Assembly: GCF_030013595.1 (NCBI RefSeq) | Contig: NZ_CP122768.1 | DNA from: Escherichia coli | GTDB lineage: Bacteria > Pseudomonadota > Gammaproteobacteria > Enterobacterales > Enterobacteriaceae | Length of the DNA stretch: 64,000 nt | Strand: one strand, 5' to 3' | Translations under genes and position numbers: made by a program | In this document: positions 9,560-13,299 of the stretch, one piece after another | Layout: each line of letters opens with the position of its first letter | Position numbering within the stretch: position 1 is the first letter of the stretch | The notes under the pieces: generated by a model | The model's database searches: none | What the model saw: only the letters and a program-made list of their open reading frames with translations | Told to the model about the DNA's origin: nothing

Positions 9560-10318
9560 ATGAGCCTGACCCTCACACTTACTGGCACTGGCGGCGCACA
9601 GGGCGTTCCCGCATGGGGCTGTGAGTGCGTGGCCTGCGTCAGAGCGCGGCGCTCACCGCAGTATCGCCGCCAGCCATGCAGCGGCGTCGTGAAGTTTAAC
9701 GACGCGATCACCCTGATCGACGCCGGGCTGCACGATCTCGCCGATCGCTGGTCGCCCGGATCGTTCCAGCAGTTTTTGCTGACGCACTACCATATGGATC
9801 ACGTGCAGGGGCTGTTTCCGCTGCGCTGGGGCGTGGGCGATTCGATCCCGATCTACGGCCCGCCGGATGAACAGGGCTGCGACGATCTGTTTAAACATCC
9901 GGGCCAGCTTGATTTCAGCCACACGATGGAACCGTTTGTGGTGTTTGATTTACAGGGGTTACAGGTCACGCCCCTGCCGCTCAACCACTCAAAACTGACC
10001 TTCGGTTATCTGCTGGAAACGGCACATAGCCGGGTGGCGTGGCTGTCTGACACCGCAGGCCTACCGGAAAAAACGCTGAAATTTTTACGCAATAATCAAC
10101 CGCAGGTGATGGTGATTGATTGCAGCCACCCACCGCGCGAGGATGCACCGCGTAATCACTGTGATTTAAATACCGTGCTTGCGCTGAATGAAGTTATCCG
10201 CTCGCCGCGCGTGGTTCTGACCCATATCAGCCATCAGTTTGATGCGTGGCTGATGGAGAACTTACTGCCGTCAGGGTTTGAGGCGGGGTTTGATGGGATG
10301 GAGATTGGGGTGGCGTGA
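9560..10318 (+). CDS. phnP: Metallo-beta-lactamase-fold phosphodiesterase PhnP
   Basis: 252 aa from [12 protein letters not shown]; HYHMDH metal-binding motif; ATG 2 nt after the phnO stop. Confidence 0.9.
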
Positions 10319-10345
10319 GGGAAAATACCCGCGCCGGCCCCTATA

Positions 10346-10675
10346 TCAACGCCCATACTCATCTTCCATTCTCCGCTCTTCATCCTCCAGTTGCCGACGC
10401 TCCTGATCAAGCTGGCGCTGGCGATCGTCCAGCTGCCTGCGGCGATCTTCAAACTGACGGCGGCGGTCGTCATATTGTCTGCGCCGATCGTCGCTCACTT
10501 CACGCTGCCAGCCGTCGTCGTGCGAATCTTCATAGTCTCGCCCACGGTCAGGGTTATAAGCATCGTTAATCGCCTGCTGAATATTGCCAATGGTGTCGTC
10601 GATAATATCGGCCTGGGCCGGAACGGTAGACAGCGTGAGCAGGGTGAATAAAAGAAATAGCGGAAAGCGTTTCAT
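10346..10675 (-). CDS. yjdP: Small secreted low-complexity protein YjdP
   Basis: 109 aa ORF; signal peptide followed by Arg/Asp/Gln/Glu-rich repeats (DDRRRQ...). Confidence 0.8.
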   Translation of the reverse strand: MKRFPLFLLFTLLTLSTVPAQADIIDDTIGNIQQAINDAYNPDRGRDYEDSHDDGWQREVSDDRRRQYDDRRRQFEDRRRQLDDRQRQLDQERRQLEDEERRMEDEYGR

Positions 10676-10743
10676 TAGCCAACCTCAAAAAGAAACTCTA
10701 TCCACATTAGTCATTACTCATCCATGCAAGTAGTGGACGAATC

Positions 10744-11061
10744 TCAATTTCTCCGCTGCTCTATTGCCGTAATCGCCTCCACGCGTTGTTGATGACGACC
10801 GCCTTCGTACTGCGCGCCCAGCCACGCATCCACAATCATTTTTGCCAGTTCGAGGCCAACCACTCGTGAACCAAAAGCCAGTGCAACTTCACTGGCGTAA
10901 TGCGGATAATCAGTGCGCTCTGACGGCCTGGTTTCTTTATCAATCCCCTCACTCATTGACCATGAATAAAAGGCTGGCACAGCAACGCGGAATCCTGCGG
11001 TGCCAGCGACATGACCGCCCATTGCTCCGGTACGTTTTTTAATAAAAAACACCGGTTGCAT
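10744..11061 (-). pseudogene. rpiB: Ribose-5-phosphate isomerase B remnant: RpiB-like N- and C-terminal segments with the central catalytic region missing
   Basis: 105 aa ORF with SERTDYPHYAS motif and RpiB/LacAB-like C-terminus but about 45 residues shorter than RpiB; residues upstream of the motif are in a foreign frame. Confidence 0.6.
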
Positions 11062-11313
11062 TGATTAATTGTGCTCAGTATTTGCCGAAGTACAATATAT
11101 ATAATAAATATATAAAACACCTCATATTATTTACAGAAATAATGAATTCGCGTAATTTTCCCTCTTCAGCACAAATGCCTAATAAAATGGCGCGTTCAGC
11201 TCACACTTCTACTTATTAAAGTCGCAATTTCCCAATTATGATAACGCCAGCTTCAAATGACGTATTTTGCATGGGTTACATATTTACGACATAAATGATA
11301 AATGGAGATTTAT

Positions 11314-13299
11314 ATGAATAACTCTCGGTTATTCCGTTTGAGCAGGATTGTTATTGCGTTAACTGCCGCCAGCAGCATGATGGTAAATACCGCTAATGCG
11401 AAAGAGGAAGCGAAAGCCGCCACTCAATATACCCAACAGGTTAATCAGAATTACGCCAAATCATTACCGTTTAGCGATCGTCAGGATTTTGACGATGCCC
11501 AGCGTGGATTTATCGCCCCGCTGCTGGATGAAGGTATTCTGCGTGATGCTAACGGCAAAGTTTACTACCGCGCAGACGATTACAAATTTGATATTAATGC
11601 CGCTGCGCCGGAAACCGTAAACCCCAGCCTGTGGCGTCAGTCGCAAATCAACGGTATTTCTGGCCTGTTCAAAGTCACCGATAAAATGTATCAGGTGCGC
11701 GGCCAGGATATCTCTAACATTACGTTCGTTGAGGGCGAGAAAGGCATTATTGTTATCGACCCGCTGGTGACGCCGCCTGCCGCAAAAGCCGCACTTGATC
11801 TTTACTTCCAGCATCGTCCGCAAAAACCGATTGTTGCTGTTATTTACACCCACAGCCACGCCGACCATTATGGCGGTGTGAAAGGCATTATCTCTGAAGC
11901 GGATGTTAAATCCGGCAAAGTGCAGGTGATCGCTCCGGCAGGCTTTATGGACGAAGCCATCAGCGAAAACGTGCTGGCGGGTAACATCATGAGCCGCCGT
12001 GCGCTCTACTCTTACGGTCTGTTACTGCCGCACAACGCGCAAGGCAACGTGGGCAACGGCCTGGGCGTGACGCTGGCAACCGGCGACCCGAGCATTATTG
12101 CACCGACTAAAACTATCGTCAGAACTGGCGAGAAGATGATTATCGACGGCCTGGAATTTGACTTCCTGATGACTCCGGGTAGCGAAGCGCCAGCCGAAAT
12201 GCACTTCTATATTCCGGCCCTGAAAGCCCTGTGTACCGCCGAGAACGCCACGCATACCCTGCACAACTTCTACACTCTGCGCGGCGCGAAAACCCGCGAT
12301 ACCAGCAAGTGGACCGAGTACCTGAACGAAACGCTGGATATGTGGGGTAACGACGCGGAAGTACTGTTTATGCCGCACACCTGGCCGGTCTGGGGCAATA
12401 AGCATATCAATGATTATATTGGTAAATATCGCGATACCATCAAGTACATTCACGACCAGACCCTGCACCTGGCGAACCAGGGCTACACCATGAATGAAAT
12501 CGGCGACATGATTAAGCTGCCGCCTGCGCTTGCCAATAACTGGGCCAGCCGCGGCTATTACGGTTCTGTCAGCCACAACGCCCGCGCGGTGTATAACTTC
12601 TATCTTGGCTATTACGACGGTAACCCGGCTAACCTGCATCCGTATGGTCAGGTGGAGATGGGTAAACGTTACGTGCAGGCGCTGGGCGGTTCTGCCCGTG
12701 TCATCAACCTGGCGCAAGAAGCGAACAAGCAAGGTGATTACCGCTGGTCGGCAGAACTGCTGAAACAGGTGATTGCCGCCAACCCTGGTGACCAGGTCGC
12801 GAAGAATCTGCAAGCGAATAACTTTGAACAGCTGGGCTATCAGGCCGAGTCCGCCACCTGGCGCGGTTTCTACCTGACCGGCGCGAAAGAGCTGCGCGAA
12901 GGGGTACATAAGTTCAGCCACAGCTCCACCGGTTCCCCGGACACCCTTCGCGGGATGTCGGTCGAAATGCTATTCGACTTTATGGCCGTTCGCCTCGATA
13001 GCGCGAAAGCCGCAGGTAAGAATATCAGCCTGAACTTCAATATGAGCAACGGCGATAACCTCAACCTGACGCTGAACGATAGCGTGCTTAACTACCGTAA
13101 AACGCTGCAACCTGAAGCCAACGCCTCTTTCTACATCAGCCGTGAAGATCTTCACGCCGTGCTGACCGGACAAGCCAAAATGGCGGATCTGGTAAAAGCG
13201 AAGAAAGCCAAAATTATTGGCAATGGCGCGAAACTGGAAGAAATTATTGCCTGTCTGGATAATTTCGATTTGTGGGTGAATATCGTAACCCCAAATTAA
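11314..13299 (+). CDS. yjcS: Putative alkyl/aryl-sulfatase (metallo-beta-lactamase fold, SdsA1-like), secreted
   Basis: 661 aa from MNNSRLF; signal peptide; [10 protein letters not shown] metal-binding motif; ORF track alternative start at 11302. Confidence 0.85.

Follow-up and report, generated by a model that had tools for sequence, protein, structure and literature searches.

Several described systems lie close to YjdP, the product of the Escherichia coli gene yjdP. Braun's lipoprotein Lpp is a 56-residue periplasmic trimer, the length of which sets the width of the periplasm and affects Rcs signalling. ER/K single alpha-helix (SAH) domains—such as those of myosin VI/X and caldesmon—are built on Glu and Lys, have no hydrophobic seam and are monomeric in solution, while CpxP, Spy and ZraP, the LTXXQ proteins, are small, helical and periplasmic. 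At the level of DNA, in-frame variable-number tandem repeats (VNTRs) of the type used in MLVA occur in E. coli coding regions. YjdP shares some features with each of these and departs from each in others. The best explanation that we can offer for the locus, which we hold to be probable though well short of certain, is that envelope stress acts through RcsB to raise the level of a periplasmic, helical YjdP rod made of selected heptads.

The window (the whole stretch of DNA under analysis, 64,000 nucleotides long) carries an ordinary allele of the curated YjdP family. The product of the open reading frame (Table 1), which reads MKRFPLFLLFTLLTLSTVPAQA, then DIIDDTIGNIQQAINDAYNPDRGRDYEDSHDDGWQREVS, then six charged heptads and a short C-terminus, matched the NCBIfam model NF041443 ('DDRRRQL repeat protein YjdP') with 148.2 bits (cutoff 90; E 7e-44) over profile positions 1–101 of 101 and YjdP residues 1–103. 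The coding DNA is 100% identical to the annotated yjdP of E. coli 2012C-4221, and PF28054 is assigned to all YjdP homologues in precomputed annotations. yjdP is a real, expressed, stand-alone gene and a catalogued one: its signal peptide and DDRRRQL repeat are already recorded in curated NCBI and Pfam families, without an attached function. The literature searched yielded no description of the DDRRRQL repeat and named yjdP itself in just three E. coli papers on expression or the locus, besides two in which the gene is listed and no more; a local Pfam-A search at E <= 1 returned only four sub-threshold, unrelated hits (DUF7900 and DUF4140 among them) and a profile search of the PDB gave coiled-coil-like noise alone (best E 0.027, an M protein).

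We found yjdP in 5,404 of 5,426 complete E. coli genomes; the other 22 gave no match. This is a very small family, with 50 clusters at the 50% identity level in a set of 1.84 billion representatives (fragments account for many of the clusters), and its named members are all Enterobacteriaceae (Escherichia, Shigella, Citrobacter, Klebsiella sp., Buttiauxella, Cronobacter dublinensis and Entomohabitans). Twelve aligned members, from at least six genera, have a common architecture consisting of a signal peptide, ADIIDD..IGNIQQAINDAY, an acidic linker and DDRRRQL-type heptads. The window carries the common 109-aa allele except for a rare substitution, H52: codon 52 (10520–10522, minus strand) encodes His in the context DSHDD, where all other aligned alleles have Arg. 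Records at least 99% identical to this allele numbered 13 of 5,405.

Table 1 Features of yjdP and its upstream region, in window coordinates.
Feature	Position	Strand	Details and basis
yjdP coding sequence	10346..10675	-	ATG start, 109 codons + TGA stop, 109-aa product; open reading frame list, profile match, annotated twin
Signal peptide, residues 1-22 (MKR / FPLFLLFTLLTLSTV / PAQA)	10610..10675	-	Read from sequence; predicted cleavage after AQA
Degenerate 9-nt repeat TTCACCCTG CTCACGCTG TCTACCGTT (FTL LTL STV)	10622..10648	-	Signal-peptide hydrophobic core; allele alignments
Conserved N-terminal amphipathic segment DIIDDTIGNIQQAINDAY, residues 23-40	10556..10609	-	Allele alignment
Acidic linker, residues 41-61 (NPDRGRDYEDSHDDGWQREVS)	10493..10555	-	Contains degenerate repeat copy DRGRDYED
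Six heptads DDRRRQY DDRRRQF EDRRRQL DDRQRQL DQERRQL EDEERRM, residues 62-103	10367..10492	-	Repeat finding, alignment
Partial seventh unit and C-terminus EDEYGR, residues 104-109	10349..10366	-	Alignment
RcsB-box-like motif TGAGATTCGTCCAC	10733..10746	-	71 nt upstream of ATG; pattern TNRGAN4TCY
Candidate -10 hexamer TAATGT, preceded by C	10704..10709	-	Inferred from sequence
Shine-Dalgarno GAGG	10683..10686	-	7 nt before ATG; read from sequence

Much of the original prediction, which had been made from the letters of the DNA, held up on analysis: the gene is yjdP (from the NF041443 match and the RefSeq annotation), the peptide quoted from it is present at residues 64–106 of the translation, the N-terminus has the basic n-region, hydrophobic h-region and AQA at −3/−1 of a Sec-type signal peptide, and the tail does consist of charged tandem repeats, in units of 21 nt or 7 aa. 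The description of the product as almost entirely repeats was overstated, since this real repeat tail accounts for only 47 of the 87 mature residues and the rest is a conserved non-repeat N-terminal helix and an acidic linker. Similarly, cggcgatcgtc-type units had been placed at 10400..10540; the 21-nt units are there, but they end at 10492, bar one degenerate copy.

Ahead of the mature sequence DIIDD, MKRFPLFLLFTLLTLSTVPAQA divides into n, h and c regions. YjdP is devoid of Cys (hence of a lipobox) and of an RR or twin-arginine motif, and A-x-A followed by D is aligned in all family members compared. As far as sequence rules go, everything expected of a substrate of Sec and signal peptidase I is present in YjdP, which is probably exported by Sec and cleaved after AQA22. 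The segment that follows, DIIDDTIGNIQQAINDAY, has hydrophobic residues at 3–4 spacing (I25, I29, I32, I36 and Y40); it is invariant in six aligned E. coli alleles except for Y40S in O157:H7, is recognisable across genera and was predicted by AlphaFold to form a helix over residues 24–40 at low confidence (pLDDT 57–65). In the linker, AlphaFold gave residues 41–53 no regular structure, with pLDDT <50 at 46–50, and between genera this is the most length-variable part of YjdP.

In the heptad tail, Tandem Repeats Finder reported a 21-nt period at 10420–10492 (3.5 copies, 75% matches, score 76), and a repeat search returned four tandem copies at 10403–10489 together with the degenerate copy in the linker, at 10526–10549, which is 71% identical to the reference repeat copy. 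The core GGCGATCGTC, with at most one mismatch, recurs at 10420, 10441, 10462 and 10483, a spacing of exactly 21 nt, and adjacent 21-mers share 13–16 of 21 bases (62–76%). At the protein level, every seventh position is hydrophobic (Y, F, L, L, L and M at residues 68, 75, 82, 89, 96 and 103). This hydrophobic position is conserved across the family, three of its residues (Y68, L89 and L96) being invariant; the full set of residues invariant across genera, in 12 sequences from at least six of them, is Y68, Q81, Q86, L89, D90, L96 and R102. The order of the charges is equally distinctive: pairs of opposite charge at i+3/i+4 number 34, against 20.6 +/- 3.3 in shuffled sequences (0 of 5,000 shuffles reached 34), and pairs of like charge only 2, against 19.4 +/- 3.4.

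E. fergusonii and the aligned Citrobacter alleles retain the same six heptads, each of them distinct in sequence. In the repeat region, 23.5 of 29.5 synonymous sites have changed relative to E. fergusonii, compared with just 9.5 changes that are nonsynonymous; of 33 differences, 25 are at third codon positions. For the comparison with C. farmeri, dN/dS in the repeat region is 0.057. This third-position bias and low dN/dS fix the reading frame as that of yjdP and exclude the long antisense open reading frames. We therefore give next to no credence to the idea that the gene is an annotation artefact, or that function resides in an RNA or on the other strand, where the GC-rich repeat does harbour long plus-strand open reading frames (10315–10569 and 10391–10651, 84–86 aa). 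Besides third-position substitution in the yjdP frame and strong purifying selection, this idea has against it a signal peptide and domain order conserved in six genera, the match to a curated HMM and a yjdP transcript that has been detected and is regulated (PMC5105897). An Rfam search over 9800–11400 found nothing credible, the best match scoring 15.5 bits (E 0.42) where the gathering score is 380.

Heptad number departs from six in about 21–23 of 5,405 complete E. coli records (~0.4%), the changes ranging from −1 to +2 and always consisting of whole units in frame. A 309-bp allele of the P0039 type accounts for 16–18 of the 5,405 records, other 309-bp alleles for four further records and a 351-bp allele for one. 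The residues at the hydrophobic seventh position tell which unit was lost or gained. Among alleles with one heptad fewer, the seam Y-L-L-L-M marks loss of the F unit in P0039 / L007 and a clean deletion of unit 2 in L019, F-L-L-L-M marks loss of the Y unit (L020, strain ST2747), Y-F-L-L-M loss of one L unit (P0026 and Shigella boydii P0062) and Y-F-L-L-L loss of the M unit (P0025). One heptad is gained in L004 (Y-F-F-L-L-L-M) and two in E. albertii P0038 (Y-F-Y-F-L-L-L-M). Since copy number changes rarely, and only by whole heptads, the register of the seam is kept.

The original prediction had called the repeat prone to slippage and to length variation between strains, and had proposed comparing copy number across E. 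coli genomes. That comparison did bring out variants with other heptad numbers, but at ~0.4% of records, with neighbouring units identical at 13–16 of 21 bases and dN/dS at ~0.06, 'slippage-prone low complexity' is only weakly true of the charged repeat. A stronger version would make the tail a contingency locus, in which frequent change is itself functional (for example through antigenic or length variation of an exposed protein). The 5-, 7- and 8-heptad variants of E. coli and E. albertii, which represent at least four independent events, speak for it. We nevertheless think it very unlikely, given that no more than about 21–23 of 5,405 complete E. coli records are off six heptads, neighbouring units are just 62–76% identical in DNA, a 21-nt unit affords no frameshift switching, and the same six units are found in E. 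fergusonii and the aligned Citrobacter alleles, as is the six-heptad mature length in 55 parsed cluster representatives. The heptads are instead, in our judgement, probably an old, selected structural module and no mutational hotspot.

What kind of structure this module adopts is suggested by modelling. With a 12-sequence alignment, AlphaFold2 returned a single helix over residues 54–108 at pLDDT 88–96. AlphaFold is prone to predict confident helices for charged repeats, and Asp is a weak helix former; helix formation by the tail is accordingly put forward here as the likely state of the chain, as modelled. A fused-dimer model (mature YjdP twice, with a 30-residue Gly/Ser linker in between), in which both repeat helices stayed confident, had a pTM of 0.45 against 0.35 for the monomer, a difference that is uninformative on oligomerisation, as is a Foldseek search of the PDB, which gave no match with E <7.9. 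Taken with the conserved seventh position, the modelled tail has the appearance of a helical rod under selection, along which runs a single hydrophobic seam.

Such a charged tail might instead be a disordered polyampholyte—a periplasmic protectant of the hydrophilin or LEA type—in which bulk composition, rather than register, matters. The composition fits, D, E, R and Q making up 83% of the repeat region and 66% of the whole mature protein; the adjoining linker is predicted to be disordered; and yjdP is co-induced with the osmotic and RpoS genes osmY, osmB, otsBA and ymdF (PMC5105897). If function depended on composition only, however, register shifts and shuffling would be tolerated, whereas individual positions (Y68, Q81, Q86, L89, D90, L96 and R102) are conserved across genera, dN/dS is ~0.06 despite near-saturated synonymous change, indels are all whole heptads, and the tail is predicted as a continuous helix at pLDDT 88–96 with a charge order far from random. 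We consider disorder of this kind unlikely and continue with the helical rod.

Set beside known helical designs, the heptad tail is not a clean SAH domain, given its seam, and Arg or Glu at position d sets it apart from a canonical coiled coil. It resembles ER/K SAH domains in its alternating acidic and basic blocks and its uninterrupted predicted helix (residues 54–108), with dense opposite-charge i/i+3 and i/i+4 pairs and almost no pairs of like charge. It differs in its use of Asp, Arg and Gln, in its seventh-position seam (Y F L L L M), in a length of just 45–55 residues and in its predicted targeting to the periplasm. One hydrophobic residue per heptad is too few for a classical coiled coil; with the YjdP seam placed at a, position d—hydrophobic, like a, in a canonical coiled coil—is Arg in heptads 1–4 and Glu in heptads 5–6. 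YjdP is Lpp-like in its strict seven-residue periodicity, similar helix length, predicted periplasmic location, putative link to Rcs and length changes by whole heptads. It is unlike Lpp in that d is never hydrophobic and in having neither a lipobox Cys nor a C-terminal Lys for attachment to peptidoglycan.

The truly variable repeat of yjdP is another one, absent from the original prediction: a 9-nt repeat, (TTCACGCTG)n, in the signal peptide, where allele alignment places most of the length variation of the gene. The window, K-12 and Nissle 1917 have a degenerate 2-copy form, TTCACCCTG CTCACGCTG TC(T/C)ACC, encoding FTL LTL ST. At the same site, a clade that includes O25b:H4-ST131 has a perfect (TTCACGCTG)n with n = 3, 4, 5, 6, 7 or 8, which yields genes of 339–384 bp and signal peptides of 25–40 residues (22 in the window), the hydrophobic core growing from 15 to up to 33 residues. 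All of these alleles are annotated as intact yjdP (loci L002, L003, L009, L010 and L011 among them). Ranking against a synthetic 12-copy query put one genome with 8 copies first, then ten with 7 and many with 6, and the boundary between expanded and 2-copy alleles fell between ranks ~459 and ~549 of 5,405, or roughly 8.5–10% of complete E. coli genomes; these copy-number frequencies are estimates from evenly rank-spaced samples, not counts.

Copy number differs among close relatives only for this 9-nt repeat, in ST131-type alleles: O25b:H4-ST131 strains have 6 or 7 copies and the isolate series CP107126–CP107234 has 3, 5, 6 or 7. A unit length of 9 nt means that this is not phase variation, and both repeats of the gene differ from a frame-shifting contingency locus in that their units (21 nt and 9 nt) are multiples of three and the copies in the window are imperfect. 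The nearer likeness is to MLVA-type VNTRs, with which the ST131-type tract shares a perfect repeat at n 3–8 among close relatives; unlike them, it is located in a signal peptide, within the hydrophobic core, and its form in the window is degenerate, stable and 2-copy. The literature searched contained no description of the (TTCACGCTG)n signal-peptide repeat, and no exact match to the expanded or +1 alleles was present in a collection of 15 billion proteins. The core-lengthening repeat of the pandemic ST131 lineage is a possible typing marker and could offer a natural experiment on signal-peptide length versus export.

Long signal-peptide cores can impair cleavage by signal peptidase and act as membrane anchors. 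A more elaborate scheme can be built on this, in which YjdP serves the Rcs response as a length-calibrated periplasmic rod (~1 nm per heptad, of Lpp-like length) and the signal-peptide repeat tunes it heritably: lengthening of the core from 15 to 24–33 residues would block or slow cleavage and turn YjdP from a soluble protein of the periplasm into one with an inner-membrane anchor. We rate this scheme as improbable, and mention it as speculation.

Upstream of the gene, TGAGATTCGTCC is an RcsB-box-like element at PyjdP. The RcsB box has the consensus TN(G/A)GAN4TC(T/C)NA (PMC7913699), of which TGAGATTCGTCCAC fits eight of the nine specified positions, the final A being C in every taxon. We compared the upstream regions of yjdP from the window, K-12, O157, E. 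fergusonii, C. farmeri, Buttiauxella, Cronobacter and Entomohabitans: TGAGAWTNNTCCNC occurs exactly once, on the coding strand and 70–73 nt before the ATG, in 8/8 of them, within flanks that are otherwise unalignable. The chance of any match to TNRGAN4TCY is ~0.07 per random 200 nt. The upstream neighbour varies across genera (rpiB, a hybrid histidine kinase and others); the motif is nevertheless retained in the 70-nt leader. In each taxon a TAnnnT element, often preceded by C (CTAATGT, CTAACGT, CTACCTT, CTATCTT, TTACCTT, TTAGCGT or TTATAAC) lies 35–38 nt after the start of the box, a distance that would put the centre of the box near −42. A scan for sigma-70 promoters called none for yjdP, TAATGT included.

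The original prediction had made expression of yjdP a test of its reading, and the transcript has indeed been detected, RNA-seq with a LolCDE inhibitor showing a roughly 10-fold induction (9.5- and 10.6-fold; PMC5105897). Listed alongside it are osmB, bdm, wca genes, rcsA, ivy, mliC, spy, cpxP and many RpoS genes, in a data set that blends Rcs, RpoS and Cpx responses (PMC5105897). In another study, combining ChIP-seq and RNA-seq, yjdP was bound and repressed 0.28-fold, apparently after induction of CsiR, and csiD was also repressed in the same table (PMC5217608). The conserved box and its spacing suggest that the yjdP promoter is directly activated by RcsB, possibly with the aid of sigma S; together, the RcsB-box-like motif and the published induction point this orphan gene to the Rcs stress regulon. 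YjdP is also like CpxP, Spy and ZraP in being small, predicted to be helical and periplasmic, and induced in the same RNA-seq (spy 31-fold, cpxP 12-fold; PMC5105897), but it has a repeat architecture and no helical-hairpin cradle. Membership of the LTXXQ family was considered and rejected, since there was no LTXXQ model among Pfam matches at E <= 1 and PDB matches had E >= 0.027.

In the account that we favour, envelope stress would lead RcsB to activate yjdP from a box centred ~42 nt ahead of the likely start of transcription, and export by Sec with cleavage after AQA22 would release an 87-residue periplasmic protein with a net charge of about −9. Mature YjdP would then begin with a short amphipathic helix that is conserved, continue through a flexible acidic linker and end in a heptad helix of ~55 residues (~8 nm). 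With its --+++ pattern, each heptad could stiffen this helix through dense salt bridges at i/i+3 and i/i+4, and the conserved hydrophobic residues would make up one seam along the rod, a putative surface for binding a partner or another YjdP molecule. As to what the rod does, we tentatively propose that it protects against stress in the periplasm or serves there as a binding rod, a step about which we have considerable doubt.

The surroundings of yjdP vary between strains, although across compared family members it adjoins the end of the phn cluster. The window strain lacks the allose (als) operon; a 318-bp remnant of the 3′ end of rpiB (10744–11061, minus strand), annotated as 'RpiB/LacA/LacB family sugar-phosphate isomerase' and present in the same truncated form in many other E. 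coli, lies between yjdP and the alkyl sulfatase gene yjcS (11302–13299, plus strand). The first three bases of the RcsB-like box are the stop codon of the upstream gene (truncated rpiB here, rpiB in K-12). In O157:H7, the upstream gene is that of the hybrid kinase LmvK, lmvK, in island OI167 (PMC10128022), and its stop codon appears to overlap the box likewise, judging from an identical intergenic spacing of 68 nt.

O157:H7 also has a divergent allele of the leader after the box and of the first 8–9 codons of yjdP (MKRHSTLF...; L005, 216–320), with a dS of 0.41 in signal-peptide codons against 0.14–0.27 further on. Judging from this divergence and raised dS, OI167 of O157:H7 appears to have its recombination boundary within the signal-peptide codons of yjdP. 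Alleles of E. albertii and Shigella boydii have a similar N-terminus, MKPYSTLF.

Downstream, the convergent genes phnP and yjdP are separated in the window by 27 nt (10319–10345), in which a terminator scan found no terminator-like hairpin; 'terminators' called at 10455–10472 were rejected as they are the heptad repeat itself. In K-12, the phnP–yjdP spacer is 146 nt long and contains G-rich palindromic repeats (L001, 1831–1976), and it is listed as a putative G-quadruplex/hairpin element (PMC5100583). In one complete genome, that of E. coli FLI21, an IS1X2 insertion splits yjdP (L006, 574–1679); this, with the 22 of 5,426 genomes that gave no match, indicates that the gene is dispensable, at least in some backgrounds. 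Only a phnH fragment is left beside yjdP in Cronobacter, and in C. farmeri a ParE/Phd-type toxin–antitoxin pair lies between yjdP and phnP (L016, 3327–3862), the ParE gene overlapping the yjdP stop codon.
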